Part shown: positions 45,483 to 64,000 of the stretch, one piece after another | Layout of the letters: every line of letters starts with the position of its first letter | Position numbering within the stretch: the stretch's first letter is position 1 | NCBI GenBank assembly: GCA_002687715.1 | Contig: NZBC01000204.1 | Coordinates: 1,135 to 65,134, forward strand | Source: Planctomycetota bacterium | GTDB lineage: Bacteria; Planctomycetota; GCA-002687715 | DNA: 64,000 nucleotides | Direction of reading: 5' to 3' | Position numbers and translations under genes: made by a program | Notes under the pieces: generated by a model | The model's input: only the letters and a program-made list of their open reading frames with translations | Told to the model about the DNA's origin: nothing | The model's database searches: none

Positions 45483-45541
45483 GGGCAACCATTGTACGGG
45501 GGCAGCCGAGGACCCCCAACCGGGTACAGTGGACCTTCGAC

Positions 45542-47557: not shown

Positions 47558-47582
47558 CGCCCGTCGCTACAATCCGCGAACG

Positions 47583-49460: not shown

Positions 49461-49499
49461 CGGAGCCGGGAAGTCACCTGCTCTGATGGGAGCGTTCTT

Positions 49500-49985
49500 C
49501 TACCCGCGCGCTGCGTTCAACAACCGTTCGATCACCCGTGCGTTGTGCAGCCCTTCGTCCGGCGCCAACAGGGGGGCGTTGCCTGAGCGGATCGCGCGCG
49601 CCAGGTCTTCGATCTCCAGCTGGAACGTATCGACGGGTCCGCACGTGAACGTCTCGGTGCCGCGATCCGTTCCCAGAATCACGTGCGTCGCGTTCTCGGG
49701 GAAGGTCAGGAATGCTCCGGGCACGCGAATGACCCCATCTGTCCCGCCCACCAACGCGCGGTGCCGCAATTCGGAATCGAACCCGCACGACACGATGCCG
49801 AACCGGCCGTCACCGTAATCGAGCACTCCGTGCAGGCTCATGTCGACGCCGGTCCGCTCGTGAAACGCCGCCCGCGCCGTCACGTCACGCGGCTCGTTGC
49901 CGAGGAGCATCCGGCACCAGTTCGTACTGCTGCGAACGTTCTTGCCGACGTTCGCCAGCGGGTGATCACCCGACCCGCTCCAGAA
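49500..49985 (-). pseudogene. Remnant of a Gfo/Idh/MocA-family oxidoreductase (C-terminal domain only; Rossmann domain missing)
   Basis: ORF 49500..49910 plus in-frame upstream codons read ...WSGSGDHPLANVGKNVRSSTNWCRMLLGNEPRDVTARAAFHERTGVDMSLHGVLDYGDGRFGIVSCGF..., matching the GGGAL.D.G.H..D..RWLLG.EP..V block and the alpha/beta C-domain. The frame is closed by a stop at 50025..50027, and the space upstream is occupied by fadA. Confidence 0.6.
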
Positions 49986-51159
49986 TCCCCGCCGCTCCCA
50001 TTCCCGTTCCGATGCACATCGTGATCATGCCGTAGCGCTGGTTGCGGCGATTCAGGGCGTGGACGACCGTTGCGGTGCGGATGGCGCCGGTCGCCCCGAG
50101 GGGGTGGCCGAGGGCGATCGCGCTGCCGAGGGGGTTGGTGCGTTGGGGGTCGAGGTCGAGGTCGCGGATGACGGCGAGGGTCTGGGCGGCGAAGGCCTCG
50201 TTGAGTTCGATGTGGTCGAGCTGATTCTGGGAGATCCCGGCTCGGGCGCAGGCGGTGGGGATGGCGGCGATGGGGCCGATGCCCATGATCTCGGGCGGGA
50301 CTCCGGCGACGGCGAAGCTGCAGAAGCGGGCGAGGGGCGTGAGGGCGAGGGCTTCCATCATCGAGCCGCTCATGAGGACGATGGCGGCGGCGCCGTCGCT
50401 GGTCTGCGACGCGTTGCCGGCCGTGACGCTGCCCTTGCGGGCGAAGACGGGGCGCAGGCGGGCGAGGGCTTCCATCGACGTGTCCTGACGCGGGCCTTCG
50501 TCCGCCTTCACTGAGATCGTTGCGACGTCGACGGATTCGGCGTCCGCGGACGGGCGACGGCGGATCACCGGAACCGGGAGGATCTCGTCAGCGAACTCGT
50601 TACCGGCTTGCGCGACGCAGGCGCGGCGGTGGCTCTCGAGCGCCCAGGCGTCCTGATCTTCCCGGGAGACGTCGTACTTCTGTGCGACCTTCTCCGCCGT
50701 GATCCCCATGCCGTACGCGATGCCGATGTTCTCGTCGTCGAAGATGGTCGGGTTGAGCTCGGGCCGGTAGCCCATCATGGGGACCATGCTCATGCTCTCG
50801 GCGCCAGCGGCGATCATGACGTCGGCTTCGCCGAGCCGGATGCGGTCGGCCGCCCAGGCGACGGCCTGCAGACCCGACGCGCAGAATCGGTTCACAGTCA
50901 CGCCTGGGACGCTCTCGGGGAGCCCGGCGAGCAGGAGCGCGATGCGCGCGACGTTCATGCCCTGCGCACCCTCGGGCATCGCGCAGCCGACGATGACGTC
51001 GCCGATCAGCTCGGGATCGAGCCCCGGACATTTCGCGACCGCGCCCTTGATGCAGTGAGCGAGCAGGTCGTCCGGACGGGTGCTCGCGAACGCACCGCGG
51101 TGTGCCTTGCCGACGGGAGTCCGGACGGCGGAGACGATGAAGGCGTCATGGGTCGTCAT
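49966..51159 (-). CDS. fadA: Acetyl-CoA C-acyltransferase (3-ketoacyl-CoA thiolase)
   Basis: MTTHDAFIVSAVRTPVGKAHRGAF...VNRFCASGLQAV (active-site Cys)...NEAFAAQ...NPLGSAIALGHPLGATG...MCIGTGMGAA. Confidence 0.95.
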   Translation of the reverse strand: MTTHDAFIVSAVRTPVGKAHRGAFASTRPDDLLAHCIKGAVAKCPGLDPELIGDVIVGCAMPEGAQGMNVARIALLLAGLPESVPGVTVNRFCASGLQAVAWAADRIRLGEADVMIAAGAESMSMVPMMGYRPELNPTIFDDENIGIAYGMGITAEKVAQKYDVSREDQDAWALESHRRACVAQAGNEFADEILPVPVIRRRPSADAESVDVATISVKADEGPRQDTSMEALARLRPVFARKGSVTAGNASQTSDGAAAIVLMSGSMMEALALTPLARFCSFAVAGVPPEIMGIGPIAAIPTACARAGISQNQLDHIELNEAFAAQTLAVIRDLDLDPQRTNPLGSAIALGHPLGATGAIRTATVVHALNRRNQRYGMITMCIGTGMGAAGILERVG

Positions 51160-51162
51160 CGA

Positions 51163-53526
51163 TCAGTTCCTCAGCGGCTTGCCGGTCTCGAGCATGTGAG
51201 CGATGCGTGCCCGGGTCTTGTCGGTACCACAGAGCTCGACGAACGCGCGGCGCTCCAGGTTCAGGACCCAGTCCTCAGTCACTTCCGTTCCCGCGTCGAC
51301 GTCGCCGCCGCAGAGGATCTTCGCGATCTTGGTCGCGATGAAGGCGTCGTGATCGGACACCCACCCGCCCGCGTGCATGTTGACGACCACGCCCTCGAGG
51401 TTCGCCGCACCGGTCCGCCCGCAGACTTTGATCGGCTTGCGGATCGGCGGGCGCCACGACGCGGCCAGCGCGAGCGCTTCTGCCTTCGCGGCCGTGAGCA
51501 GCTCCTGGCTGTTCATGACGATCGTGTCGGTGTCGCGCAGGAGCCCCATCCCGATGGCGTCTTCGCCGCTCGCGGACACGACCGCCTTGGCCACGAATTC
51601 GAACGCCCGTTGGATGAACGGCCACGGGTCCCCGTCCGGCGCCGCCGCCGCCGCACGCCGTGCGAGCTCACGCAACCCACCGCCTGCGGGAAGGACTCCG
51701 ACGCCGATCTCCACGAGCCCGAGGTACGACTCCGCCGAGCACACCGTGCGAACGGCGTGCATCGCGAACTCGCAACCGCCTCCGAGCGCCATCCCGTCTA
51801 CTGCCGCGACCACCGGCACCTCGGACTGCGAGAACCGGGTCGATGCGCGCTGGAACTTGCGCACGATGGCGTCTACGGCATCGAGATCGCCGCTGTCGAT
51901 GATGGCCGACACCTGCTGGAGGTTGGCGCCGGCGGAGAACGGCGGCTTGTCCTGCCAGATCACGACGGCCGAGCATTCCGTTTCCGCGACGTCGAGCGCC
52001 GCCTCGATCCCGTCGAGGACGTCGTCCCCGATGACGTGCAGCTTCGACTTGAACGAGAGAACGCCCACGTCGTCGCCGTCGCGCCACAGGCGGACCGCAT
52101 CCGTCTCGTGCAGCGTTTCACCCGGTGAGTCGTCGACGACTTCGCCCACGACCGATTCCGTGAACGCCTGCTTCTTGTAGACGCCCAGCGTCGAGCGCGG
52201 GACGAGCTGGTTCGTATCCGCGTCCCACGATCCGTAGGGAGTGTGGACCGACTCACGTTCTGCAACCCACGGGGGCAGCGGCCGGCTGGCCATGGTGCGA
52301 CCGTCGGCGATCTCCTCCGCGATCCAGCTCGCGACATGACCCCAGCCCGCTTCCTGCCACAGCTCGAACGGCCCTTTCTTCCAACCGAACCCCCAGCGGA
52401 GGCCGAAGTCGAGGTCGCGGGCCGAGTACGCGATGTCCGCGAGGTGGACGGCCGCGTAGTGCCAGACGTCCCGGTGGATGCACCACAGGAACTCGGCCTG
52501 CGGGTGATCCGACGCCCGGAGTTGTTTCAGCCGCTCGTTGGCGTCGCCCACGCCGAGGATCTCCTGGACCTCAGGCGCGGCCTCGAACGTGGCGAGGCGG
52601 TAGCCGCCCTCGCCGTCCATGACGTGGATCTTGCCGCCGACCTTCTTGTAGATGCCGGTCCCGACCTTGGCGCCAACGAACCCCTGGTCGAGGAGCCCTT
52701 TCAGCCATGCGGGGACGAGGTAGTGCTTGTGCCACGGATCGTCGGGCAGCAGCCGGGACGAGCCTTCGATGACGTGGGCAAGGGTGTCGAGCCCGACGAC
52801 GTCAGCAGTCCGGCACGTCGCGCTCTTCGGACGTCCGATCGCGGGGCCGGTGATTGCGTCGACGACGTCGAAGGGGATGCCGAGTCGCGCCGCCTGATGG
52901 AACGAGGACAGCATCGAGAAAACCCCGATGCGGTTGGCGACGAAGTTGGGCGTGTCCTTCGCCCGCAGGACCCCTTTGCCGAGCCGGGAGACCAGGAACG
53001 CCTCGAGGTCGTCGAGCAGCGACTCGTCGGTCTCCGGGCCGGCGATGAGCTCGACCAGGTGCATGTAGCGCGGCGGGTTGAAGAAATGGACGCCACAGAA
53101 CCGCGGTTTGACGGTGTCCGGCAGCGACTCTTCGAGGACCGACAGCGAGATGCCGGACGTGTTCGTCGCCAGCACCGCGCCCTCTTTCAGGTGCGGCGTG
53201 ATCTTCCGGTAGAGGTCGTGCTTGATGTCCGGACGTTCGGCGACCGCCTCGATCACGAGATCGCAGTCGGAGAGCCGCGGGAGCCCCGTCTCGTAGTTCG
53301 CCGTTTCGATCAGCCTGGCGCGCGCTGGGGTCGCGAGTGGCGGCGGCTTCATCTTGGCCAACCCCTTGATCGCCTTCTTGACGTGAGCATCCGGGTCCTT
53401 CCCCTCGGCCGGAAGCTCGAAGAGGACGCAAGGGACTTCGGCGTTCACGAGATGCGCGGCGATCTGCGCGCCCATGACGCCGGCTCCCAGCACGGCGGCG
53501 CGGCGAACTCGCATGGTGTCGCTCAT
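51163..53526 (-). CDS. Bifunctional 3-hydroxyacyl-CoA dehydrogenase (N-terminal) / enoyl-CoA hydratase (C-terminal), FadN-type
   Basis: RRAAVLGAGVMGAQIAAHL (NAD Rossmann)...GVHFFNPPRYMHLVELI...; the C-terminal crotonase fold reads FSAGANLQQ...VPVVAAVDGMALGGGCEFAMH. Confidence 0.9.
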   Translation of the reverse strand: MSDTMRVRRAAVLGAGVMGAQIAAHLVNAEVPCVLFELPAEGKDPDAHVKKAIKGLAKMKPPPLATPARARLIETANYETGLPRLSDCDLVIEAVAERPDIKHDLYRKITPHLKEGAVLATNTSGISLSVLEESLPDTVKPRFCGVHFFNPPRYMHLVELIAGPETDESLLDDLEAFLVSRLGKGVLRAKDTPNFVANRIGVFSMLSSFHQAARLGIPFDVVDAITGPAIGRPKSATCRTADVVGLDTLAHVIEGSSRLLPDDPWHKHYLVPAWLKGLLDQGFVGAKVGTGIYKKVGGKIHVMDGEGGYRLATFEAAPEVQEILGVGDANERLKQLRASDHPQAEFLWCIHRDVWHYAAVHLADIAYSARDLDFGLRWGFGWKKGPFELWQEAGWGHVASWIAEEIADGRTMASRPLPPWVAERESVHTPYGSWDADTNQLVPRSTLGVYKKQAFTESVVGEVVDDSPGETLHETDAVRLWRDGDDVGVLSFKSKLHVIGDDVLDGIEAALDVAETECSAVVIWQDKPPFSAGANLQQVSAIIDSGDLDAVDAIVRKFQRASTRFSQSEVPVVAAVDGMALGGGCEFAMHAVRTVCSAESYLGLVEIGVGVLPAGGGLRELARRAAAAAPDGDPWPFIQRAFEFVAKAVVSASGEDAIGMGLLRDTDTIVMNSQELLTAAKAEALALAASWRPPIRKPIKVCGRTGAANLEGVVVNMHAGGWVSDHDAFIATKIAKILCGGDVDAGTEVTEDWVLNLERRAFVELCGTDKTRARIAHMLETGKPLRN

Positions 53527-53542
53527 AGCGTCCAGGTCCTCT

Positions 53543-55390
53543 TCACGAATCGTTCACGGCGCACGATGCGTACATGCGCTCGATCTCGTCGACGTAGAAC
53601 TCGGCGATTCGCTCGCGCTTCGGCTTGAGCGTGGGCGTGAGCAGTCCGGACTCTACCGTCCAGGGCGTTGGAACGGCGGTCACCCGGCGGACCCTGGCGT
53701 GACCGGTGAACCCGGACAGGTGTCTCGAAATGCGTTGGAGTATGAACGCTTCGCTGGTTTCGTCCCCGCTTGCCGGGCTGGCGGGCAGGCCGTGTCCGCG
53801 CGTCTGGCGTTCCCACGCATCCGGCTCGATGAACACGAGCGCGGCCAGAAACGGCCGTCCCTCGCCGACGATGAGGATCTGCTCGAACAGCGGGTCTCGC
53901 ATGATCGACGCCTCGAGGTCGTCGGGAGGCACCTTCGTACCCGTGGCGAGCACGATGATCTCCTTCTTGCGACCGGTGATGGTCACGAACCCGTCGTCGA
54001 TGCGCGCGAGATCGCCGGTGTGGAGCCAGCCGTCCGCGTCGATGACGCGGGCGGTCGCCTCCGGATCGCGCCAGTAACCGAGCATCACGCTGGTGCTTCG
54101 CACGCAGAGCTCGCCGTCGTCGGCGATGCGGATCTCCGACCCGGTCAAGGGTTGGCCGACCGTCTCGGGCCGGTTGTCTTCGCGTCCGTTCATCGTGACG
54201 CCAGGGCTGCATTCGGTCAGCCCGTATGCGTGTGAGACCTCGATGCCGAGCGCGATGATCACCCGCGCGACGTCGAACCTCAGTGCCGCACCCCCGCACA
54301 GGGCTCCCTCGATGCGTCCGCCGAGTCGCGCCCGCATCGGCTTGCCGACGAGGCGGTCGAGCAACGGACCCCACACGTGCGCAGGCCGCCACGACCCGCG
54401 GCCCTGGACGCGGAGGAACCGGCTCCATCCCACGTCGACCGCGCGGTGGAAGAGGCGTTCTCGCCAGGCGGGGCCGTCGGCGAGCCTGGCGCGGATCTTC
54501 CCATGCACGCGCTCGAAGATACGGGGGACGGTGATGAGCACGGTCGGCCGCACTTCCCGCAGATCCTCCGGCAGATCGGGTACTGATCGTGCGAAGGCGA
54601 CGGTCGCCCCAGCCATCATCGGCGCGTAGTACCCGCACGTTCTCTCCAGCGCGTGGCACATCGGCAGGAACGACAGCAGGACGTCGTCGCGGCGCAACGG
54701 GAGCCGCCGCATTCCGAGCTCACAGTTGTCGAGGATGTTCCGGTGACTGAGCATGACGCCCTTGGGGCATCCCGTCGTCCCCGACGTGTAGACGATGGTG
54801 GCCAGCTCGTCGGGGTCGGCTGCGTGCGGGTCTCCCGCGTCGTGGGCGTCGGTGTCCGCGAGCCACGACCTGGTCGACCGCGCGCCCGCGCCGGGGTCCG
54901 AGTCCTCCGCAACCAGCACGGCCTCGAGCCGTGGCATCGACGCCGCGTGCGGACGCAGGTCGTCCCACATGGCGCCGTCCTCGAGCAGCAGCACGCGTGC
55001 TTCCGCATGATTCACGATCCACGCGACGTTCTCGGGCCGGTCGCTGACGTACAGCGGGACGACGACGCATCCCAGCGACAGCGCCGCTTGCTCGAAGAAC
55101 ACCCAGTGCACCCGGCTCTCGCAGCGAAGGGCGACGTGGTCACCGACCGTCAATCCGAGCCGGCGGAGCGCGCCGCGCCAGCGATCGACCTCGGAGAGGA
55201 TCGACGCCCACGTCGACTCGCGCCAGACGCCGCCCTGGCGTTCCAGGTACGCGACGTTGTCGGGCGTTGCCGCGGCGCGCGCGCGGAGCAGTCCATGCAG
55301 CGATCGCGCCTCGGCGGCGTCGATCAACCACCTGGCCGCCGGCGGCGCGGCGTCGCGAATCAGGCGAGCTTCTGTGCCACCTTCTTCCAC
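53543..55390 (-). CDS. fadD: Long-chain-fatty-acid--CoA ligase (AMP-forming)
   Basis: ATIVYTSGTTGCPKGVMLSHRN (AMP-binding signature)...GYGLTE-like YGLTECSPG...WLHTGDLARIDDGFVTITGRKKE. The GTG start overlaps the fadE stop by 31 bp, so the start is uncertain. Confidence 0.9.
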   Translation of the reverse strand: MEEGGTEARLIRDAAPPAARWLIDAAEARSLHGLLRARAAATPDNVAYLERQGGVWRESTWASILSEVDRWRGALRRLGLTVGDHVALRCESRVHWVFFEQAALSLGCVVVPLYVSDRPENVAWIVNHAEARVLLLEDGAMWDDLRPHAASMPRLEAVLVAEDSDPGAGARSTRSWLADTDAHDAGDPHAADPDELATIVYTSGTTGCPKGVMLSHRNILDNCELGMRRLPLRRDDVLLSFLPMCHALERTCGYYAPMMAGATVAFARSVPDLPEDLREVRPTVLITVPRIFERVHGKIRARLADGPAWRERLFHRAVDVGWSRFLRVQGRGSWRPAHVWGPLLDRLVGKPMRARLGGRIEGALCGGAALRFDVARVIIALGIEVSHAYGLTECSPGVTMNGREDNRPETVGQPLTGSEIRIADDGELCVRSTSVMLGYWRDPEATARVIDADGWLHTGDLARIDDGFVTITGRKKEIIVLATGTKVPPDDLEASIMRDPLFEQILIVGEGRPFLAALVFIEPDAWERQTRGHGLPASPASGDETSEAFILQRISRHLSGFTGHARVRRVTAVPTPWTVESGLLTPTLKPKRERIAEFYVDEIERMYASCAVNDS

Positions 55391-57825
55391 GGACGCCCTC
55401 CTGGAGTGAAGTCCTCGGGGCCGAAGTCGTCGACGGCGATCGCGAACGCGCTCGCCTGGCGTGCGGTGGCGACCAGCGCCGCGTCATCAGCGGTGATCAC
55501 ACCAGCGGTCACGGCACGGCCGACCAGGTCCGCCGCGGGGGCCGCGTCGAGGGACTTCGCGCGAACCGCGTCCTTGATGCGCCGCTCGATCGGCTCTGCG
55601 GCGACCACGGCGCGGAGCGCATGCTCGAGGCGTCCGGTCGGATCCTCCGGGTCGGTGTTGACGTACATGCCGCACGCGAGCCGATCGCGCTGCGGGCCGG
55701 GGTCGAGCAGCATCGATGCGATGCGATGGCCGGCGCGATCGCTCGGCGGACGCCAGCGCGCGCCGAAGGGGAACACCACCCGCCGGAGCAGCCATGCGAG
55801 GGGCTTCACGGGGAGGTTGTTGAGCAGACCCTCGAGCGACGCCTGGGCCGTGAACAGGCTGCGCCGCAGGTTCCACGATACGAGCGGCAGATCCTCGGCC
55901 GGACGCCCATCGTTCTCGAACCGGCGCAGGACACAGCTCGCGAGGTACATCTCGGAGAGGATGTCGGCGAAGCGGCCGGAGAGCTTCTCCTTGCGCTTGA
56001 AGGCGCCGCCGAGGACGACGAGACACGCGTCGGCGACGGTGGCGAAGTTGGCGCTCGTGCGGGTGAGCTGCCCGTACCAGTGGCGCACTCGCCGGTCGGC
56101 CTTCGCCGGTGCGCCCGCGAACCGGCCGCCGGTGAGGTTGTGCCAGAACGCGCGCGCGACGTTGGAGATCAGGAACCGGACGTGGCCACCCACTGCCCGG
56201 TCGAACGCGACGAGGTCGTTCGCCTGCGCGGATTCCATCTCGCGGAGGAGCCACGGGTGGCAACGCATCGCGCCCTGGCCGAAGACGATCAGGGTCCGCG
56301 TGAGGATGTTCGCGCCCTCGACGGTGATGCTGACCGGGACCGACTGGTAGGCGCTGGCGAGATAGTTGCTCGGACCCTCGCAGATGCCACGCCCGCCGTG
56401 GATGTCCATGGCATCGTTGACGGCGTTGCGCATACGTTCGGTGGCCTGGTACTTGAACAAGGCTGAGATGACCGACGGCTTCTCGCCTGCGTCGACGGCA
56501 GCGGCGGTGATGCCTCGCGCGGCTTCCAGCAGATAGGTGTCCCCAGCGATCCGTGCGAGCGGCTCCTCGATGCCCTCGAAACGGCCGATCGGCACCTTGA
56601 ACTGCCGGCGCACCCGCGCGTACGCACCCGTGTTGCGGGCGCAGAACTTGGTGGCGGCGGTGCTCGACGCTGGTAGCGAGATCGAGCGACCGGCGGAGAG
56701 GCAGTCCATGAGCATGCGCCAACCCTGGCCGACGCGATCCTGCCCGCCGATGATCCAGTCGAGCGGGATGAACACGTCGTTGCCCCGGACCGGACCGGTC
56801 ATCATCGATTGCTTGAGCGCGTCGTGACGGGGTCCGACATTGACGCCAGCGTGGTCGGCGGGAACGAGTGCGACGGTGATCCCGAGGTCCTCCTGGTCGC
56901 CGAGCAGCCCGTCGGGGTCGCGGACCTTGAACGCGAGGCCGATCAGGGTCGCGATTGGTGCGAGAGTGATGTAACGCTTGTCGAAGGTCACCCGCATGCC
57001 GAGGACTTCGGCTCCCTCGTGCATGCCGTGGCATACGACGCCGGTATCGGGCATCGCCGCGGCGTCTGAACCCGCGGCGGGCGACGTCAGCGCGAAGCAC
57101 GGGATCTCCTCACCGCGTGCCAACCGCGGTAGCCAGTGGTCCTTCTGCGCGTCGGTCCCGTAGTGCAGCAGCAGCTCGGCGGGGCCGAGGGAGTTGGGGA
57201 CCATGACGCTGATCGCGCCCGTGGTCGATCGGGTGGCGATCTTCTGAACGACGCATGAGTGCGCCTGCGCGGAGAACCCGAGGCCGCCGTACGACTCGGG
57301 GATGATCATGCCGAGGAAGCCCCCGGAACGAAGGGACTCCCAGATGTCCTGCGGGAGATCGCGGTGCTCCTTGGAGGCCCTCCACTCGTCGAGGTGGCTG
57401 CAAAGCTCCTCGGTCGGACCGTCGAGAAACGCCTGCTCCTCGTCGGACAGCTTCGGGGCGCCAGCGGCGAGGAAGCGGTCGAAGCACGGCTTCCCCGAGA
57501 AGAGGTCGGCGTCGAACCACACCGTGCCCGCCTCCAACGCCTCACGCTCGGTGCTGGACATCGGTGGCAGGGCCTTGCGCGTCATGCGGAGCATCGGCGC
57601 GGTCACGAGGGCGCGACGTACCGGCGGGATCGCGAGCAGCGCGGGGATCAACCAGCCGCACCAGAGGATGATGAGCGTCAGCTCGGCGCCCCAGTTCACC
57701 GACGTCGCGGTTGCGAGCGCTGCGCCCGAGACGAGCACCCACAGCCACAGCGGCGCCTGGCGCGCGGCCAGGACCCAGGCGACGACGAGCGCACTGACTA
57801 TGATCGCTGCGATCTCCATGATCAT
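55360..57825 (-). CDS. fadE: Large membrane-associated acyl-CoA dehydrogenase, FadE-type
   Basis: ATG at 57825 preceded by GGAGGAGAGG: MIMEIAAIIVSALVVAWVLAARQAPLWLWVLVSGAALA (N-terminal TM helices), then the ACAD fold (...GFLGMIIPESYGGLGFS...ALTSPAAGSDAA...EGANILTRTLIVFGQGAMRCHP...). 821 aa, about the length I recall for E. coli FadE. Confidence 0.9.
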   Translation of the reverse strand: MIMEIAAIIVSALVVAWVLAARQAPLWLWVLVSGAALATATSVNWGAELTLIILWCGWLIPALLAIPPVRRALVTAPMLRMTRKALPPMSSTEREALEAGTVWFDADLFSGKPCFDRFLAAGAPKLSDEEQAFLDGPTEELCSHLDEWRASKEHRDLPQDIWESLRSGGFLGMIIPESYGGLGFSAQAHSCVVQKIATRSTTGAISVMVPNSLGPAELLLHYGTDAQKDHWLPRLARGEEIPCFALTSPAAGSDAAAMPDTGVVCHGMHEGAEVLGMRVTFDKRYITLAPIATLIGLAFKVRDPDGLLGDQEDLGITVALVPADHAGVNVGPRHDALKQSMMTGPVRGNDVFIPLDWIIGGQDRVGQGWRMLMDCLSAGRSISLPASSTAATKFCARNTGAYARVRRQFKVPIGRFEGIEEPLARIAGDTYLLEAARGITAAAVDAGEKPSVISALFKYQATERMRNAVNDAMDIHGGRGICEGPSNYLASAYQSVPVSITVEGANILTRTLIVFGQGAMRCHPWLLREMESAQANDLVAFDRAVGGHVRFLISNVARAFWHNLTGGRFAGAPAKADRRVRHWYGQLTRTSANFATVADACLVVLGGAFKRKEKLSGRFADILSEMYLASCVLRRFENDGRPAEDLPLVSWNLRRSLFTAQASLEGLLNNLPVKPLAWLLRRVVFPFGARWRPPSDRAGHRIASMLLDPGPQRDRLACGMYVNTDPEDPTGRLEHALRAVVAAEPIERRIKDAVRAKSLDAAPAADLVGRAVTAGVITADDAALVATARQASAFAIAVDDFGPEDFTPGGRPWKKVAQKLA

Positions 57826-57841
57826 CCTCTCCTCCGTCGAG

Positions 57842-58507
57842 TCAGGCTCCGCTGCTCGCGGGCGTTCTTGCGGCGACGCCCTTCGGCAGAGGCGCGCGCA
57901 ATCCGGCTGCGATGAACGGCACCAGGCGCCGCGCAGCCTCTTCCGGTACGGACACGTCGGGCGACGGACATGTTGCGATGAGTGACATCGCATCTGGACC
58001 CGCCATCGTGTAGCTCAGCGAGCCCTGCAAGAAGTGGAGCCGCCACACCAGCTCCTCCGCGGGGACGTCGGGCAGCACCTGGCGCACCGCGGTTGTGAAC
58101 CGTTCGAGGACCTCAGCGTACTGCTCCTGCACGCACGCCTGGATCGACTCGGTCGGGTCGGTGTACGACCGCGCTAGGACGCGCACGAAGCGCGCGCCAC
58201 CCTGCTCCTCGTCCGTGCTCAGCTCGAGCGCGGGGGCGATGAACGCATCGAGGATGCTCTCGACCGACGTGTTGCCACCCGCTTCGGTGGCGGCGAGCTG
58301 CTCGAGCCGCATCCGGTTCAGAGGTTGCAGCCGTCGGGCCAGGACGGCCCGGATGAGCCCGTCCTTCGAGCCGTAGTGGTAGTTCACCGCCGCGAGATTC
58401 ACGCCGGCGCGGGCGGTGATGTTCCGCATGCTCGCGGAGAACCCCACCTCCGCGAACAACTCCTCTGCGGCTTGGAGGATCGCTTCCTTTGTCCGGTCGG
58501 TCGCCAT
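57842..58507 (-). CDS. TetR-family transcriptional regulator (likely repressor of the downstream fad operon)
   Basis: MATDRTKEAILQAAEELFAEVGFSASMRNITARAGVNLAAVNYHYGSKDGL (TetR HTH). AGGAGG lies 8 nt upstream of the ATG. It is the first gene of the co-directional fad cluster. Confidence 0.9.
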   Translation of the reverse strand: MATDRTKEAILQAAEELFAEVGFSASMRNITARAGVNLAAVNYHYGSKDGLIRAVLARRLQPLNRMRLEQLAATEAGGNTSVESILDAFIAPALELSTDEEQGGARFVRVLARSYTDPTESIQACVQEQYAEVLERFTTAVRQVLPDVPAEELVWRLHFLQGSLSYTMAGPDAMSLIATCPSPDVSVPEEAARRLVPFIAAGLRAPLPKGVAARTPASSGA

Positions 58508-58527
58508 GGTCCAAGCCTCCTATCGGT

Positions 58528-58553
58528 CAATCGTACGTTTCAATCGTACGTTT
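58528..58553. promoter_or_regulatory. Two perfect tandem copies of a 13-bp unit, CAATCGTACGTTT, each pseudo-palindromic around CGTACG; candidate TetR operator
   Basis: Copies at 58528..58540 and 58541..58553, 21 bp upstream of the TetR start codon in the TetR/DUF962 divergent spacer, followed by an A9 tract. Confidence 0.55.
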
Positions 58554-58639
58554 GACAAAAAAAAGGCCGATCGGGCGTGGTAGACCGGGATCCGAAGGGG
58601 GCGCGGCCCGGATTCCGACGCTCCGAGGCGAGAATCCTC

Positions 58640-59140
58640 ATGAGCCAGCCCGTCTCGCATCGACTCACCCCCTGGTTCGCCGACTACGGTGCGCACCATA
58701 CGACCCGGGGTAACCGGCGGAGCCACCTCATCGGTATCCCCGTCCTGATGGTCGCGATCCTCGGCCTCCTGGCCCGGCTCGAGGTGACCGCGGGTGCGGA
58801 TTTCGCGACCCGACTCGATGCCGGTCGCCTCCTCTGGATCGTGGCGACGGTCTGGTACCTCTGGCTCGACTGGCGGCTTGGCCTTCCCTTCGTCCTCTTT
58901 GGCGCCGGCTGCTACCTCGGCGGGTGGTGGCTTCCGGTCCCCGCCCTGATCACGATGTTCGTCTTGGGCTGGATCATTCAGTACCTCGGCCACGCGATCT
59001 GGGAAAAGCGCGCGCCGGCATTCCATCAGAACCTGGCCCACCTGCTCATCGGTCCGCTGTGGGTGTTTGCCGAGGTGCTCGGGAGGGCGGAGGTCGAAAC
59101 CAGTCAGCCGCGCAACGCCGACGCCGCCAGCGACGGGTAG
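58640..59140 (+). CDS. DUF962 (Mpo1/YGL010w-like) membrane protein
   Basis: ATG at 58640 in ORF 58577..59140: MSQPVSHRLTPWFADYGAHHTTRGNRRSHLIGIPVLMVAILGLL...GWIIQYLGHAIWEKRAPAFHQNLAHLLIGPLWVF, the layout characteristic of DUF962 (H..H.N...H.hGhP ... GH..hE...PA). Confidence 0.65.
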   Translation: MSQPVSHRLTPWFADYGAHHTTRGNRRSHLIGIPVLMVAILGLLARLEVTAGADFATRLDAGRLLWIVATVWYLWLDWRLGLPFVLFGAGCYLGGWWLPVPALITMFVLGWIIQYLGHAIWEKRAPAFHQNLAHLLIGPLWVFAEVLGRAEVETSQPRNADAASDG

Positions 59141-60789
59141 CGCCACCACCGGGGTCGGGCTTCGAATGCGAGGGCCTTCTTCGCGAGGGCGTCGAGGTTC
59201 TGGTGGTCGGCGAACCAGGGCGGCGTCGGGGTGATGCGGAACGGCGCGTGGGCGACGGATCGCTCGGGATGGTCGAGCATCAGCGCGTTGTGGACGACGC
59301 CGATACCGGAGCCGATGTCGTCGAGGCGGTGACCCGGGAACGCACCCCAGCTGGTGGCTCCCAGGGCGAACACGATGCCGGGCCACACGTTGATGCCGAT
59401 GGCTCCGTAGCGGAGGTCGGAGAGGCGTGTCGCGAGGTGGTCGCGGATGGCGCGTTCGGTGCGGGGGTCGATGAGCAGCGCGCACGACAACGTGCCGGCG
59501 ACGTCTTGGTTCACGAACGGAATGGCGGCGTCCATGAACTTCGCAGGATCCGCGCCGTGGGGAGAGTCGAGGGCGACTACGCCGAGAAGTCCGCAGAATG
59601 CTTCTTCGCAGAGCAGCAGCTCAGCGGGATCGGGTGCGACGTCGTCGATGAGGGTCCACGGTACGTTGCCATCGGCTCCCGGCGTCAGCGATTGCGCGGC
59701 CGGATACTGCTCGCGGAACCGCTCGTAGCGCGCTCTCGAGCCAGGGTAGTAGGCGCGTCGCTCGGGCGTCCGGGCGAGCGCCGTGCGGACGGCGTCGACG
59801 AACGCGGCGCGTTGCGGCCACTCGCGAGCGACGACGAGGAGCTGGGCTGCGTTGCAGTTGAAGCTCGCGTTGTGAGTGATCATCGACGCAACGTGCCGGG
59901 CCTGAAACGCGATCTCGTGCGGGGTCCAGCGTCCAGGCACGACGATGACGGGGGTGACCGCACCGAGCTCCGAGGTGACGGGCTTGGTCAGCACGGGGTC
60001 CAGCAATGCCCTGCGTCGCGTCCGCTCATCCGGCGTCGCGCCCCAGACGATGCGATCGTGAGTCGCGGCCGATCCGGTCAAGTGCACCGTGTCGATCGCG
60101 GGGTTCGCGCACAACGCAGCGCCGACCGGGCCCTCGCCGTCGACGAACGCGAGGAACCCTGGCTCGATGAGGGGTGCGAACGCCGTCTCGAAGAACGGTC
60201 GCAGGTACGCGTTCACCGGGTTCATCTTCACGATGCACACCCGACCTTCGATGGCGAGTTGACCCAGCGCGTCGAGCGGAGGGATGGAGGAGACGTTGCC
60301 AGCGCCGAGAACGAGCGCGACCTCGCCGCCGCCCTGTTCCGGGGCGTGATAGATCCGTCCCTGGGTGGGCTCCGCACCCGGTGACAGCCACACGTCGGCG
60401 GTGAGCCCCGGGTACGTGAGTCGGTCGAGCATCGTCAGCGGGAACACGCGTACGCGTGCCCGCCGGCCGGGCGCGTTCGTCACCGGGCCGAGCCGAGGCC
60501 TCCCACCGGCTCGGAGGGACTCAGCGAGCAAGCGCAGATAGCGCGCGGTCACGAGCGGTCCGGACAATCGTTCCTCACCCGCGCCCACGGATCCCGGCGC
60601 GTGTCCCTTCGCTTCCGATGCGGCGGCAACCCACGCGTTCGCGATGCCGAGCACGCCGTCGATGCAACGGGTCATCAGCGATCCACGCTCTCTCGCGCCG
60701 ATCCGGGTCCACGCCTCCTTCTTCCCGGTGACGCGGGCGAGCGCCGCGGTCGGCAGTGACGCGTTGTTCGTCCCGGGGGAGGGTGCCAT
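59104..60789 (-). CDS. Aldehyde dehydrogenase superfamily protein
   Basis: ...VALVLGAGNVSSIPPLDAL...VCIVKMNPVN...VHLTGSAATHDRIVWG...TSELGAVTPVIVVPG (catalytic Glu block)...ASFNCNAAQLLVV (Cys block). Start inferred at ATG 60789; the tracked ORF starts at 60864. Confidence 0.7.
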   Translation of the reverse strand: MAPSPGTNNASLPTAALARVTGKKEAWTRIGARERGSLMTRCIDGVLGIANAWVAAASEAKGHAPGSVGAGEERLSGPLVTARYLRLLAESLRAGGRPRLGPVTNAPGRRARVRVFPLTMLDRLTYPGLTADVWLSPGAEPTQGRIYHAPEQGGGEVALVLGAGNVSSIPPLDALGQLAIEGRVCIVKMNPVNAYLRPFFETAFAPLIEPGFLAFVDGEGPVGAALCANPAIDTVHLTGSAATHDRIVWGATPDERTRRRALLDPVLTKPVTSELGAVTPVIVVPGRWTPHEIAFQARHVASMITHNASFNCNAAQLLVVAREWPQRAAFVDAVRTALARTPERRAYYPGSRARYERFREQYPAAQSLTPGADGNVPWTLIDDVAPDPAELLLCEEAFCGLLGVVALDSPHGADPAKFMDAAIPFVNQDVAGTLSCALLIDPRTERAIRDHLATRLSDLRYGAIGINVWPGIVFALGATSWGAFPGHRLDDIGSGIGVVHNALMLDHPERSVAHAPFRITPTPPWFADHQNLDALAKKALAFEARPRWWRYPSLAASALRG

Positions 60790-60888
60790 GCCCGCCACCC
60801 TATCAACCCCCGCTCTCTCGAGATCCCCGTCGCCATTGCGGCGTTCTTCCAAACCGGGTTCCATGATGCTCCAGCAAAAGGAGTCCGC

Positions 60889-61713
60889 ATGTTCCGGTTC
60901 ACTCTCCTGGTCGTCCTCGCCGTCGTCGTCTCGCTCGTGTCGGGTTGCGCCGTGATGGCGCCCGTGGAGAAGAACACGGAGACAATCGAGCGGAGCGTTG
61001 CCGGCATCTCCGCGAACACCGAAGCCGTACGCCGCACGTCACAAGTGATGGCGGAGCTCGGCCCTGCGCTGGAGAAGACCGCGGCACTGCGGGCGCCGAT
61101 GACCCGCCTGTCCGAACTCGAGGTGCCGTTGACGCGGGTGGCCGCGCTCGAGACGCCGTTGCGACTGGTTGCCTCGCTCGGCCCGCCCATGGAGGCCCTC
61201 GCCGACCTCGCTCCGCCGATGAAGGGTCTCGCGACCCTGCAGGGACCGATGACCGCCGTCGCGATGCTGAAGGACCCGATGACCGCCGTCGCCGCACTCG
61301 ATGGTCCCATGCGCGCCGTCGCGACCCTCGGCCCGGTGCTCGCTCGCGTCGCCGACCTCAAGACTTCCATGGACACTCTGGCCGGCTTGGACGCGAGCAT
61401 GGCCACGATGGCGAAGCTGGAGTCCCCGATGAAGGACGTCGCCGCGCTCCGCCCCGCCATGGAGAACGTCGCCAATCTGCGCGACGCCATGGCCGACCTC
61501 GCAACGCTCAAGGGCGCGCTGCGCGACGTCGCCGAGCTCCAGGCGTCGATGGATCGCGTGGCCGAGCTGAAGGGACCGATGGAGCGAGTCGCCGACGCGG
61601 CTCCCGCGATCAACCCGATCCTGCTCGCCGGGCTGCTGTTCGTCGGCCTGGCGGCCGCGATCGCGGTTGGCGTCGCGGTGGGTCTGCGCTTTGGGAGGGT
61701 GGCAGTTAGATAG
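60889..61713 (+). CDS. Lipoprotein with C-terminal TM helix, composed of 18 consecutive decapeptide repeats L-x-x-[PAS]-[ML]-x-x-[VL]-A-x
   Basis: MFRFTLLVVLAVVVSLVSGC (lipobox). Residues 57..236 read LGPALEKTAA LRAPMTRLSE LEVPLTRVAA LETPLRLVAS LGPPMEALAD LAPPMKGLAT LQGPMTAVAM LKDPMTAVAA LDGPMRAVAT LGPVLARVAD LKTSMDTLAG LDASMATMAK LESPMKDVAA LRPAMENVAN LRDAMADLAT LKGALRDVAE LQASMDRVAE LKGPMERVAD. C-terminal TM helix ILLAGLLFVGLAAAIAVGVAVGL. High GC3 in this frame. Confidence 0.75.
   Translation: MFRFTLLVVLAVVVSLVSGCAVMAPVEKNTETIERSVAGISANTEAVRRTSQVMAELGPALEKTAALRAPMTRLSELEVPLTRVAALETPLRLVASLGPPMEALADLAPPMKGLATLQGPMTAVAMLKDPMTAVAALDGPMRAVATLGPVLARVADLKTSMDTLAGLDASMATMAKLESPMKDVAALRPAMENVANLRDAMADLATLKGALRDVAELQASMDRVAELKGPMERVADAAPAINPILLAGLLFVGLAAAIAVGVAVGLRFGRVAVR
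61057..61596 (+). repeat. 18 x 30-bp imperfect in-frame tandem repeat (coding)
   Basis: Strict 10-residue periodicity: Leu at residues 57, 67, ... 227 and Met/Leu at 61, 71, ... 231 (13 Met, 5 Leu). Confidence 0.9.
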
Positions 61714-61720
61714 AGATGGC

Positions 61721-61750
61721 GGGAGCGCGGACCTGGAGATCCGCGCTCCC
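61721..61750. repeat. REP-like palindrome / bidirectional terminator between convergent genes
   Basis: GGGAGCGCGGA-CCTGGAGA-TCCGCGCTCCC: an 11-bp perfect stem. It shares GCGGACCTGGAG(G/A)TCCGCGCTCCC with the element at 3913..3938. Confidence 0.7.
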
Positions 61751-61760
61751 GAAGAGAGGC

Positions 61761-62222
61761 CTAGTAGCGGCTGAAGGCGGCGCGGCGGTAGCCGGCGATC
61801 GCCACGCTATCCCCGTTCAGGCTGTTGATGGCTGCAAGCAGGTTATTGCGAGCGGAGGCGTAGGTGGCGCGATAGCGGGTGCTGCCATGCATGCGCCACC
61901 AGTTCACGAGGGCGCTGAACGCGGCCTTGTGGGCCCCGATGCTGTTGTTGGTGGTCTGGGTGAGGCGGTTGAGGAAGCGAACGTAGCGACCTCGAGCGTT
62001 GCGGCGGACTAGTGGGTTGGTGCTCGCCATTCCCGCATTCCAGGCGGCGGCTTCACCAGCGAGGGCGCCCTGATTCGCGATGTTGGCGTTGTTCGCGGCG
62101 ACCGCTCGGCTCAGCAGACCCTGATAGCGGCGCCAGGCAGCGGAGCTCTGAGCGCTCGCGACGTCGGAAAAAGAGAAGAACGAAACGGTCAGGACGAGGG
62201 CGGTCGTGATGATGCGGCTCAT
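61761..62222 (-). CDS. Small secreted Ala/Asn-rich helical protein, function unknown
   Basis: Internal ATG (62222), AAAGGA upstream: MSRIITTALVLTVSFFSFSDVASAQ (signal peptide), then SSAAWRRYQGLLSRAVAANNANIANQGALAGEAAAWNAG...; 153 aa. Confidence 0.6.
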   Translation of the reverse strand: MSRIITTALVLTVSFFSFSDVASAQSSAAWRRYQGLLSRAVAANNANIANQGALAGEAAAWNAGMASTNPLVRRNARGRYVRFLNRLTQTTNNSIGAHKAAFSALVNWWRMHGSTRYRATYASARNNLLAAINSLNGDSVAIAGYRRAAFSRY

Positions 62223-62382
62223 GGTTAGTCCTTTCGTCAAAGAGGCTTGGGGGCCGCGGCCGTCCGCTCCATCTGGCCCCATTGCCACCCCGGGAGATCC
62301 CCGCCGGGAGCCGCGAGCGGTCAAAAAACCCCGAGGATCGCTACGATGCTCCGAAGGTAGACTCCGGGAACGAGATAGGACG

Positions 62383-62982
62383 ATGTCGCCTCCAGCCGAA
62401 GACGCGTTTTCAGGCCTGGTTGCCGGTCTTCGGGACGGCGATGAGGAGGCGGCGGCTGCGTTCTACGGGCGGTACGGCCCCCTGCTGGAGCGTCTTGCCG
62501 ACAAGAACCTCGAATCGGGAATCCGGCGGCGGGTCGGCGGCGACGAGGTGGCCCACTCGGCGTGCCGGACGTTTCTCCGTCGCATCCGCATCGGTGAGTT
62601 CTCCCTCGATGGTCGCGACGACCTCTGGAACCTGCTCTGCGCGATCACCGTTGCGAAGGTCCGCAAGAAGGTCCGCTTCCATCGCGCGCAGAAGCGCGGC
62701 GTCGGGCGCGAGATCCGTGGCACGACGGACGACGATGCGCCTTCGCCGGACGCGGTTCTACCGACCGAGGCTCTCGGCCCCGCCGATGCTGCGGAGATCG
62801 CGGACGCGGTACAGCATCTCCTCGACGGATTGAACGATGAGGAACGGCAGCTCGTCTGCTTGAAGCTCGAGCAGCGGACGGACGAGGGGGTCGCCGACGC
62901 GATCGGGTGTAGCGAGCGCACCGTTCGCAGGCTTCGCCAGCGGATCCAGGAACGCTGGCGGTCGCTCATCCCGGATGCGTGA
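62383..62982 (+). CDS. ECF-type RNA polymerase sigma factor (kinase-associated type)
   Basis: ATG at 62383 in ORF 62206..62982: sigma-2-like FYGRYGPLLERLADKNL...DEVAHSACRTFLRRIRIGEF...DLWNLLCAITVAKV; sigma-4 LNDEERQLVCLKLEQRTDEGVADAIGCSERTVRRLRQRI. Its stop overlaps the kinase start (TGATG). Confidence 0.8.
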   Translation: MSPPAEDAFSGLVAGLRDGDEEAAAAFYGRYGPLLERLADKNLESGIRRRVGGDEVAHSACRTFLRRIRIGEFSLDGRDDLWNLLCAITVAKVRKKVRFHRAQKRGVGREIRGTTDDDAPSPDAVLPTEALGPADAAEIADAVQHLLDGLNDEERQLVCLKLEQRTDEGVADAIGCSERTVRRLRQRIQERWRSLIPDA

Positions 62983-64000
62983 TGGCAGCTGTCGACGAAT
63001 CGGCGCGTCAGCGATTCGAAACCGCCCGTCGAGCCGGTGACGACGAGGACCTCGAGGCGTTCCTTCCCGCCGTAGGGGACCCTCGTCGTCTGGCGACGCT
63101 GGTCGAGCTGCTGTGCATCGAACGTGAATTCCAGTGGAAGGAGCATGCCCAGGACGGCGCCGCGCCCCCGCCGCCTCTCGACGCTCTCCTCGAGCGCTTC
63201 CCCGCTCTCGGTGACGACGATCGGTCCACGGTCGTGGATGAGGAGGCAGGGCTCGTGGACCGCTTCGGCGGTGGCGACGATGCGACGCGGTGCGAACGCG
63301 CCTCATCCCACGCCGCGGACTCCGCACGAACCCAGGTCCTCGGCGAGTCAGGCTCCGCCGGCTGGACGTTCGCCGACCGCGTCGGCGCGGTCCCGGCCGT
63401 GAACCCAGGATCGCAGATCGGGCGCTACGAGGTCCGGTCCTTGCTCGGACGCGGCGGCTTTGCGCAGGTGTGGCGAGCGTACGACCCGAAGCTGAAGCGC
63501 GAGATCGCGCTCAAGCTGACCCGGGCTGATCTCGCCGACTGTTCCGAGCAGACGGAGCGCGTCCGCCGCGAGGCGCAAAGCGCCGCGCGACTGCAGCACC
63601 CGGCCATCGTCCCGGTGTACGAAGTCGGCGAGCACGGCGGCTGTCCGTACATCGTGAGCGGGCTCCTCCCCGGGCCTGACCTCGCGGCGGCGTTGCGCAA
63701 AGGGCGGCCTGATCCAGATCGCGCCGTCCGCATGGTCCTCCGCCTCGCGCACGCGGTCGAGTACGCGCATCAGTGCGGTATCGTCCATCGCGACATCAAG
63801 CCCGCGAACATCCTCCTCGACGACGACGAAGAGCCGGTGCTGACCGACTTCGGCCTCGCGCACCAGGATGACGCCGAAGTCAGCATGACGCAGGAGGGCG
63901 ATCTCCTGGGCACGCCGGGCTACATGTCCCCCGAGCAGGCGCGCGGCGAGAAGGACGTCGATGCCCGCAGCGACGTCTACGCCCTCGGAGTTGTTCTCTA
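62982..64000 (+). CDS. Ser/Thr protein kinase (Hanks type), partial; runs off the right edge
   Basis: Own translation from ATG 62982: MAAVDESARQRFETARRAGDDEDLEAFLPAVGDPRRLATLVELLCIEREFQWKE... then IGRYEVRSLLGRGGFAQVWRAYDPKLKREIALK (GxGxxG...AxK), IVHRDIKPANILL, LTDFGLA, GTPGYMSPEQ. Absent from the ORF track because it is open-ended. Confidence 0.9.
   Translation, partial: MAAVDESARQRFETARRAGDDEDLEAFLPAVGDPRRLATLVELLCIEREFQWKEHAQDGAAPPPPLDALLERFPALGDDDRSTVVDEEAGLVDRFGGGDDATRCERASSHAADSARTQVLGESGSAGWTFADRVGAVPAVNPGSQIGRYEVRSLLGRGGFAQVWRAYDPKLKREIALKLTRADLADCSEQTERVRREAQSAARLQHPAIVPVYEVGEHGGCPYIVSGLLPGPDLAAALRKGRPDPDRAVRMVLRLAHAVEYAHQCGIVHRDIKPANILLDDDEEPVLTDFGLAHQDDAEVSMTQEGDLLGTPGYMSPEQARGEKDVDARSDVYALGVVL

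Follow-up and report, generated by a model that had tools for sequence, protein, structure and literature searches.

Eighteen consecutive decapeptides between two predicted membrane anchors: a candidate coiled-coil rod in an uncharacterised family of bacterial envelope lipoproteins

Introduction

The window analysed here is a stretch of 64,000 nucleotides of contig NZBC01000204.1 (assembly GCA_002687715.1), assigned to a Planctomycetota bacterium. Near its 3' end, an open reading frame (ORF) at 60889..61713 on the + strand encodes a protein that consists largely of ten-residue repeats set between a lipobox and a transmembrane (TM) helix. The question raised by this locus is which structure eighteen such repeats could form, and what a protein held at both ends would do in the cell envelope. 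A first-pass annotation, made from the sequence alone, had favoured a solenoid or stacked short helices and had suggested that the regularly spaced Met residues might bind metal or scavenge oxidants. According to Hartmann et al. (PMC4786415), 10/3 (3.33) is the lower limit of coiled-coil periodicity, and decads are described only in isolation, each absorbed by a short 3-10 segment. A run of 18 consecutive decads would therefore be exceptional.

Results

The + strand frame is the gene

The ORF listing and direct translation gave a product of 274 amino acids (aa). The ORF is preceded by a Shine-Dalgarno sequence (Table 1), and its GC content at the three codon positions (0.72/0.49/0.88) follows the usual high-GC coding signature, whereas the overlapping antisense ORF of 312 aa shows an atypical pattern (0.51/0.73/0.83). 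The homologous + frame was open in 17 of 17 loci of the protein family described below, and stops interrupted all three antisense frames in the lower-GC homologues L022, L011, L012 and L007 (6, 4 and 12 stops in L022, with 54% GC). In addition, positions 45400..64000 of the window (~18.6 kb at the 3' end) were 100% identical to the Tara Oceans scaffold TARA_SAMEA2620043_METAG-scaffold_863 (L026), on which the public gene call is the same 274-aa ORF and the antisense ORF is uncalled. The + strand frame is thus a genuine gene, as the first-pass annotation had assumed, and these four lines of evidence ruled out the antisense ORF as the true gene. The 274-aa protein and the start variants examined for both strands were absent from a collection of 15 billion proteins; this is a quirk of the look-up, since L026 carries the call there.

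The protein combines a lipobox, a polar head, 18 in-phase decapeptides and a TM helix

In the N-terminal sequence MFRFTLLVVLAVVVSLVSGC, a basic n-region and a hydrophobic core precede V-S-G-C, in agreement with the lipobox pattern [LVI][ASTVI][GAS]C, and the lipobox Cys is conserved in at least 90% of alignment A1 and invariant in alignment A3. On its signal peptide the protein is a predicted bacterial lipoprotein, with both its acylation and its membrane of residence putative. The C-terminus carries a single TM helix and a basic tail, so that both anchors of the first-pass annotation were recovered and a double tether is plausible. Because a lipobox is combined with a stop-transfer helix and a positive-inside tail, the whole array is predicted to be periplasmic and tethered at both ends. 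The ectodomain between the anchors contains no Phe, Trp, Tyr or His, has 27 acidic against 23 basic residues, and presents a narrow Leu/Met/Val/Ala stripe.

Two periodicities follow one another along the ectodomain. The head (residues 21-56) has a hydrophobic period of 3.44 and comprises heptads with N29-T, S36, N43-T and T50 at d and I33, I40, V47 and M54 at a; V22 and V26 carry the heptad register back to the lipid anchor. Residues 57-236 then form 18 units without a phase slip, as the first-pass annotation had described. Residue identity at lag 10 was 0.42, compared with a best-lag mean of 0.15 and maximum of 0.21 in shuffled sequences (n=5000), and the hydrophobicity spectrum peaked at 3.34 residues with a power of 219 (shuffle maximum 130). 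The core consists of Met/Leu at position 5, Val/Leu at position 8 and Leu at position 1, with 3-3-4 spacing, which corresponds to a 10/3 (3.33) stammer or decad pattern. No flexible linker was present at either end, and the register reaches within a few residues of both anchors.

The residue preferences reported earlier held at position 1 (Leu in 18/18) and position 5 (Met in 13, Leu in 5) and nearly so at the other positions. Position 4, described as Pro, Ala or Ser, fits in 17 of the 18 units (Pro 10, Ala 4, Ser 3) and is Val in one; Val or Leu occupies position 8 in 16 units, with one Thr and one Met; and Ala occupies position 9 in 17, with one Ser. The repeat units share a mean pairwise identity of 54% in DNA and 38% in protein, and Tandem Repeats Finder (TRF) detected stretches of 2-3 copies at most. 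These values indicate that the array is old and selected at the protein level, and recent tandem expansion or phase variation at the DNA level was ruled out. No further decapeptide arrays, tRNAs or Rfam families were found within the 64-kb window.

The protein belongs to an uncharacterised family

An exhaustive phmmer scan over 1.8 billion cluster representatives retrieved 141 clusters (50% identity) at E<1e-3 and 42 at E<1e-10; a word-indexed search found three relatives only. With the window protein alone as query, no close relative was found among GTDB genomes, and the genome loci of relatives were obtained by searching with the subfamily that shares a TM motif. No Pfam or NCBIfam model reached threshold for the window protein or any of 46 relatives, consistent with the earlier statement that the repeat matches no described family. 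The sub-threshold matches were coiled-coil-like noise (Spectrin_Anc-1, DUF7310, DUF948 and NPV_P10); DUF948 (PF06103) scored 19 bits over residues 7-56 against a gathering threshold of 37.2 and matched 10 of the 46 relatives weakly, none at threshold. A PDB sequence search with the window protein returned nothing above threshold, and a pentapeptide repeat was rejected, its only PDB match (2j8k, E 2.8) being at chance level. Neither decapeptide-repeat lipoproteins nor continuous decad coiled coils were found described in the searchable literature.

The matches of 100-330 aa share one architecture, in which a lipobox Cys and a conserved polar head are followed by decapeptides in varying number, a single C-terminal TM helix and a basic tail. 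The head follows C-x8-([N/S][T/S]xx[I/V]xx), with 3-5 heptads that start exactly 8 residues past the Cys in most members, and has Asn (50%) or Ser (46%) at d, Thr (67%) at e and Ile or Val (77%) at a. A position matrix iterated over the family yielded 1142 decad units with Leu at position 1 (84%), Pro at position 4 (42%; Ser 21%, Ala 14%), Leu (52%) or Met (40%) at position 5, Val (53%) or Leu (30%) at position 8 and Ala at position 9 (67%), so that Leu or Met fills position 5 in 92% of units and Val or Leu fills position 8 in 83%. Members carry ~5 to 18 decads, and the distance from the Cys to the TM helix ranges from ~99 to 234 residues (median 175). The window protein alone has 18/18 units in phase, and its array and ectodomain are among the longest in the family.

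Relatives conserve [N/H/R]-P just ahead of a conserved TM helix, which is followed by basic residues. One subfamily has the helix motif W-G-x-V-T-F-x-A-V-R-L-A, and P0003, P0011, P0017 and P0034 bear cytoplasmic tails of 30-60 residues. The genome matches of one subfamily were metagenome-assembled genomes (MAGs) of Acidobacteriota (Vicinamibacterales) and Gemmatimonadaceae, and P0003 is a protein of Polyangium aurulentum; the phyla of the family are Acidobacteriota, Gemmatimonadota and Myxococcota. On sequence grounds this is a real, uncharacterised family of predicted envelope proteins with ~140 clusters at 50% identity.

Among the relatives, P0014 (632 aa) joins a family member to a second protein with a signal peptide of its own and a C-terminal Phe. 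The second part is homologous to a 376-aa gene (L009:8718-9848) directly downstream of the family gene in L009; it may be an outer-membrane protein and, in some Vicinamibacterales, a conserved neighbour.

Structure prediction suggests a long kinked helix compatible with a coiled-coil rod

The window protein was modelled as a monomer with AlphaFold2, using the 46-sequence alignment. The model was all-alpha (predicted local distance difference test, pLDDT, 81; predicted template modelling score, pTM, 0.33), and DSSP placed one-residue breaks at position 1 of the Pro-containing repeats, three residues ahead of the Pro. The homologue P0002 was predicted as one unbroken kinked helix from residue 5 to 186 (pLDDT ~90), followed by the TM helix. 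The solenoid or stack of short helices preferred by the first-pass annotation over a coiled coil is not supported: AlphaFold2 returned a long, regularly kinked helix, and the hydrophobic period of the repeats is 3.33. Foldseek searches of the model against PDB and BFVD gave 0 matches, which is expected for a long helix and uninformative.

For a helix of 180-220 residues with a narrow Leu/Met/Val/Ala stripe, neither a free monomeric state nor a place on the membrane surface is plausible, and the lack of aromatics and His together with the excess of acidic residues suits a coiled-coil core better than a membrane-surface helix. Among the polar cores of trimeric autotransporter stalks, the motif of Asn at d followed by Thr at e is the most common (Lupas and co-workers; PMC13580157), and the OMP100 stalk likewise puts a decad after its Asn-at-d layers (PMC4786415). 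Because the head motif is characteristic of parallel trimers, a parallel trimer is favoured. A profile of ten family members matched SadA in PDB (2wpq/2wpr, E 0.018-0.07) and also 2wps (SadA), EibD (2xzr) and a GCN4 variant with Asn at d (2wq0), all at E 0.018-0.56. The decad pattern recurs in the coliphage N4 gp66 appendage, a trimer (PMC13434306), whose decapeptide array the family profile matched at E 3e-7. We tentatively favour, at somewhat less than an even chance, a fibrous envelope coiled-coil rod, most likely a parallel trimer of decad strands.

The gene, the family, its anatomy, its periodicities and the predicted helicity are what the data show; from these we infer how many chains assemble, their parallel course, sorting to the outer membrane and a tether function in the following way. 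After export, the signal peptide would be cleaved at the lipobox and Cys20 acylated, while the helix at 244-266 would be retained in the cytoplasmic membrane, its basic tail facing the cytoplasm. Between the anchors, ~217 residues would form one long alpha-helix, which would join identical chains, most likely three and in parallel, as a coiled-coil rod. The four heptads with Asn or Ser at d would serve as a polar-core head that nucleates the rod and sets its register at the lipid anchor. The 18 decads that follow, with a core of Met/Leu, Val/Leu and Leu in 3-3-4 spacing and a period of 3.33, could be accommodated if the Gly/Asp/Ser-Pro segment (positions 2-4 of each unit) absorbs the overwinding strain of 10/3 periodicity. 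By arithmetic (1.33-1.5 A per residue), the anchors would lie ~29-32 nm apart in a parallel rod of this length and 23-26 nm apart in the family-median rod; the 23-32 nm range compares with reported inner-to-outer membrane distances in E. coli. In the most parsimonious topology, the outer membrane receives the lipid and the inner membrane the TM helix, and the assembly would act as a rigid inner-to-outer membrane tether or spacer.

Several observations weigh against this rod. There is no precedent for an 18-decad coiled coil with one Pro in every repeat, and such a structure might fail to form. The pTM values were low (0.30-0.33), and the model of the window protein folds back at 115-121 and 174-180 (pLDDT 49-60), with the repeat phase intact. 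Among the PDB matches, those of the head are marginal and that of the family profile to the N4 gp66 appendage (PDB 9lc0/9yf4/9yf5, E 3e-7) is inflated by repeats, and hhalign of A1 against P0102, a tail-fibre decapeptide protein, gave a probability of 18%. The ectodomain length of ~99 to 234 residues fits one fixed periplasmic width poorly, and in some members the +2 residue after the Cys is Asp or Glu. In E. coli, Asp or Glu at +2 leads to inner-membrane retention, and the sorting rules of these phyla may differ.

Confinement to the inner membrane is the main rival

The main rival to the tether keeps the rod or hairpin within the inner membrane, and we consider it possible although rather unlikely. 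Both anchors would sit in the cytoplasmic membrane, the array would form a hairpin or three-helix bundle or lie along the periplasmic face, and the protein could act as a scaffold or docking platform for the periplasmic enzymes encoded alongside it in some lineages. The three antiparallel segments of the AlphaFold2 model agree with this arrangement, as do the +2 acidic residue in several members and the wide range of ectodomain lengths, which is easier to explain when no fixed gap is bridged. The Vicinamibacterales gene also lies inside operons, where it overlaps the stop of a glucose-methanol-choline (GMC) oxidoreductase gene or stands 13 bp upstream of a haem peroxidase gene. However, the fold-back points are of low confidence and fall at ordinary repeats without a phase break, and P0002 is predicted as a single unbroken helix of ~180 residues. 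For these reasons the fold-backs are read as probable artefacts of monomer prediction. The Asn-at-d head beside the lipid anchor also points to a parallel in-register oligomer, and an ectodomain that lacks aromatics and carries an excess of acidic over basic residues would sit poorly on an anionic membrane surface.

A redox role of the Met residues may be secondary and lineage-specific

A second alternative, which could coexist with the rod, makes redox chemistry the main function: Met would be a sacrificial sink or sensor of periplasmic peroxides or hypohalous acids, and Met sulfoxide would loosen the assembly. Within the gene, 13 of the 18 position-5 codons are ATG despite a GC content of 68-70%, and the mature ectodomain contains 17 Met. 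As 13 of the 18 a layers are Met, the core could be oxidation-sensitive, although this is speculative. Position-5 Met reaches 70-88% in the window protein, P0004, P0008, P0003, P0017, P0034 and a few others. In two Polyangia-type loci, those of P. aurulentum and one metagenomic relative, the gene order is Fur, AhpC, AhpD-like (CMD), family gene and a 92-aa gene, with the first four on one strand; the two family genes, P0003 and P0017, belong to different 50%-identity clusters and to the Met-rich members (71-73%). In some Vicinamibacterales operons the start of the family gene overlaps the stop of a GMC oxidoreductase gene with a twin-arginine translocation (TAT) signal, and a di-haem peroxidase-like lipoprotein is also encoded; in others the family gene occurs with an animal-type haem peroxidase and an Old Yellow Enzyme (OYE) flavoprotein, beside RoxA-like cytochromes.

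The distribution of Met speaks against such a main function. Position 5 is devoid of Met in a dozen or so members, among them P0007, P0013, P0021 and P0041, and the family-wide residue is a core hydrophobe. No peroxide genes adjoin the window gene, the contexts of P0060/P0147, P0009, P0013 and P0041 have no peroxide or other redox theme either, and synteny inside one order may reflect shared ancestry. The oxidant link suggested by the first-pass annotation gains some support from peroxide-related neighbours in two lineages, with none in the window. We consider a redox main function unlikely and keep a redox role as a secondary, lineage-specific possibility. The most far-reaching version, in which a natural continuous 10/3 coiled coil with a Pro/Gly hinge per repeat forms a trimeric inner-to-outer membrane ruler whose Met core, in Met-rich members such as the window protein, unzips on oxidation to report or buffer periplasmic oxidative stress, would be a long shot.

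Several Vicinamibacterales MAGs (L002-L010 and L015) contain a recurrent cluster of an OYE-type flavin oxidoreductase and 1-2 RoxA-like or di-haem cytochrome c peroxidase-like proteins. Its third component is an animal-type haem peroxidase, a TAT-signal GMC oxidoreductase, or a pair of Tle1-like and patatin-like lipases; in L009 the family gene lies between the two lipases. The cluster appears to be a periplasmic system for oxidation or lipid modification that is as yet uncharacterised.

Sorting-signal and metal-binding readings are the weakest

A cleaved C-terminal sorting signal (exosortase, rhombosortase or MYXO-CTERM type) in place of a permanent anchor, which would make the mature protein a cell-surface fibre, is very improbable. 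The tripartite arrangement of [N/H/R]-P, hydrophobic stretch and basic residues resembles such a signal, and the phyla of the family are rich in PEP-CTERM-type systems. However, no NCBIfam CTERM model (PEP-CTERM, MYXO-CTERM or GlyGly-CTERM) matched the window protein or P0003 at E<=1, long tails, atypical of sorting signals, follow the helix in P0003, P0011, P0017 and P0034, and the helix itself is conserved in one subfamily, as would be expected if it functions as a TM segment.

Cu(I) is known to be bound by Met triads in other proteins, and the regular Met array at a core position is the sole support for Cu(I)/Ag(I) binding, for example by Met3 layers in a trimer that buffers periplasmic metal. 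This earlier suggestion is weakened to the point of being the least probable of the readings considered: the ectodomain has no His and no Cys beyond the lipidated Cys20, its Met residues lie 10 apart in the chain, Met and Leu freely replace one another across the family, so that Met is dispensable for the fold and a family-wide metal site is argued against, no cop, cus or sil genes occurred in any context examined, no metal-binding family of Pfam or NCBIfam was matched, and the closely spaced Met/His motifs, family match and cop/cus/sil context of Met/His-rich Cu/Ag proteins (CusF, SilE/PcoE, CopC type) are all missing.

The gene neighbourhood of the window shows no conserved partner

The neighbours named earlier, a small secreted protein and an extracytoplasmic function (ECF) sigma factor/Ser-Thr kinase pair, were confirmed (Table 1). 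The sigma factor is of the PF07638 or 'plancto1' type, the latter below threshold, and the kinase has 1474 aa with WD40 beta-propellers (full length in L026). A functional link to this pair was rejected, as the adjacency was seen in no other family context. A conserved partner was rejected as well: the small neighbours from six contexts resemble neither the 153-aa protein of the window nor each other across lineages. On the other side, the called start of the aldehyde dehydrogenase (ALDH)-like ORF lies 24 bp from the ATG of the repeat gene on the opposite strand, so that its true start is further in or the promoters overlap coding sequence. The FadE of the adjacent beta-oxidation set has its best named relative in a Planctomycetes MAG (63% identity), and the same FadE was found on 8 contigs. 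From the identity to the Tara Oceans scaffold, the window derives from an uncultured marine bacterium.

Table 1. Features of the repeat gene and its surroundings (positions of the 64-kb window)
Feature	Position	Strand	Remark
Shine-Dalgarno AAGGAG	60878..60883	+	5-nt spacer to ATG; read from the sequence
Signal peptide with lipobox L-V-S-G-C, ending at Cys20	60889..60948	+	Cys20 is the predicted acylated mature N-terminus
Linker (8 residues, heptad register) and four polar-core heptads, residues 21-56	60949..61056	+	
18 decapeptides L-x-x-P-[M/L]-x-x-[V/L]-A-x, residues 57-236	61057..61596	+	unbroken register
Junction AAPAINP, short degenerate repeat, residues 237-243	61597..61617	+	ahead of the membrane helix
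Single hydrophobic TM helix, residues 244-266	61618..61686	+	hydropathy scan; AlphaFold2 helix 243-273, pLDDT ~95
Basic tail RFGRVAVR, residues 267-274, then stop	61687..61713	+	predicted cytoplasmic (positive-inside)
Antisense 312-aa ORF	60675..61613	-	by-product of high GC, no gene
Secreted orphan protein, 153 aa	61761..62222	-	no family match; convergent with the repeat gene, divergent from the sigma/kinase pair
ECF sigma factor (PF07638)	62383..62982	+	stop overlaps Ser/Thr kinase start at 62979
ALDH-like ORF, 586 aa	59104..60864	-	weak Pfam Aldedh match, 28.6 bits
Mpo1-like 2-hydroxy-fatty-acid dioxygenase homologue	58577..59140	+	adjoins the TetR/beta-oxidation operon
TetR-family regulator and complete beta-oxidation set	49966..58507	-	
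FadE-type acyl-CoA dehydrogenase	55360..57993	-	
Acyl-CoA synthetase	53543..55390	-	
3-hydroxyacyl-CoA dehydrogenase/enoyl-CoA hydratase fusion	51163..53526	-	
Thiolase	49966..51159	-	

Discussion

If the 18 uninterrupted Pro-bearing decads form a coiled coil, they would test the accepted 10/3 lower bound (PMC4786415), and the array would show a repeated natural relief of decad strain in a pattern that recurs in phage fibres. A protein with a lipid anchor and a TM helix at opposite ends, no flexible linkers and a rod of roughly periplasmic length in between would couple the inner and outer membranes of diderm bacteria in a novel manner, and its repeat number (5-18 in the family) would offer a natural length series for probing this coupling. 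The family occurs in poorly studied phyla (Acidobacteriota, Gemmatimonadota and Myxococcota) and in a marine, possibly planctomycete lineage, and the recurrent peroxide-related neighbours provide a testable physiological lead.

Four known systems bear comparison with the protein. Exchangeable apolipoproteins are built from tandem, Pro-punctuated amphipathic helical repeats (11/22-mers in apoA-I), and the Met residues of apoA-I reportedly reduce lipid hydroperoxides. The window protein shares with apoA-I the tandem short helical repeats with Pro at the boundary, and lipid-metabolism and peroxide genes lie near several family loci. It differs in its period of 10 (3.33 per turn) against 11 (3.67), its narrow stripe, its lack of aromatics and its excess of acidic over basic residues, and no sequence match to apoA-I was found.

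Phage fibres, such as coliphage N4 gp66 and the 'Decapeptide repeat region' (PF25296) of Peptidase_S74 proteins, share the 10-residue hydrophobic-x-x-hydrophobic-A-x-hydrophobic-x-x-polar pattern in long arrays, and phmmer matched tail-fibre proteins at E 1e-15 to 1e-4. The N4 gp66 appendage is a trimer, modelled over about residues 1-80 only, with the decapeptide region mostly unmodelled (PMC13434306). The phage units are rich in Val, Thr, Ile, Ser and Asn and, unlike the window protein, have no Pro, Met, lipobox or TM helix. PF25296 did not match the repeat region of the window protein even at E<=10, and the tail-fibre protein P0120 itself scored 26.9 against it, below the gathering threshold of 45. 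Homology to phage decapeptide fibres was therefore rejected on the hhalign probability and the missing PF25296 match, and the likeness is treated as one of pattern. Long unbroken decapeptide arrays were also observed in the tail-fibre-like proteins P0022, P0067, P0069, P0100, P0102, P0119 and P0120, which have Peptidase_S74 chaperone domains; examples are V-T-T-V-A-G-I-S-x-[D/N] and L-D-x-L-x-x-I/L-x-x-N, with 3-3-4 hydrophobic spacing, and these repeat regions are apparently structurally unmodelled.

Trimeric autotransporter stalks come closer in the head, where the Asn-at-d/Thr-at-e motif is matched by the [N/S]-T-x-x-[I/V]-x-x of the family. The YadA-type beta-barrel anchor and the head domain of these adhesins have no counterpart in the window protein, and neither Pfam YadA_stalk nor other adhesin stalk or head models matched it or the 46 relatives. 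Adhesin stalks contain single decads in a heptad background at the cell surface, whereas the window protein has 18 in a row, with Pro, in the predicted periplasm.

Braun's lipoprotein Lpp/OprI (alanine-zipper lipoproteins; NF040598, PF11839) shares the N-terminal lipobox, a coiled coil that starts a few residues past the acylated Cys, a small aromatic-poor fibrous ectodomain and the concept of a rigid distance-setting envelope tether. The window protein reached 15.2 bits (E 0.023) with NF040598 over residues 5-54 only, below the cutoff of 43 bits. Lpp consists of 58 aa of heptads with a terminal Lys linked to peptidoglycan, whereas the window protein has four times that length, consists of decads and lacks the C-terminal Lys, ending instead in a TM helix and the cytoplasmic tail RFGRVAVR. 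We know of no Lpp homologue in the phyla of the family. The protein thus resembles Lpp and the autotransporter stalks in its proposed way of working and is a member of neither, and we class it as a putative fibrous coiled-coil envelope lipoprotein.

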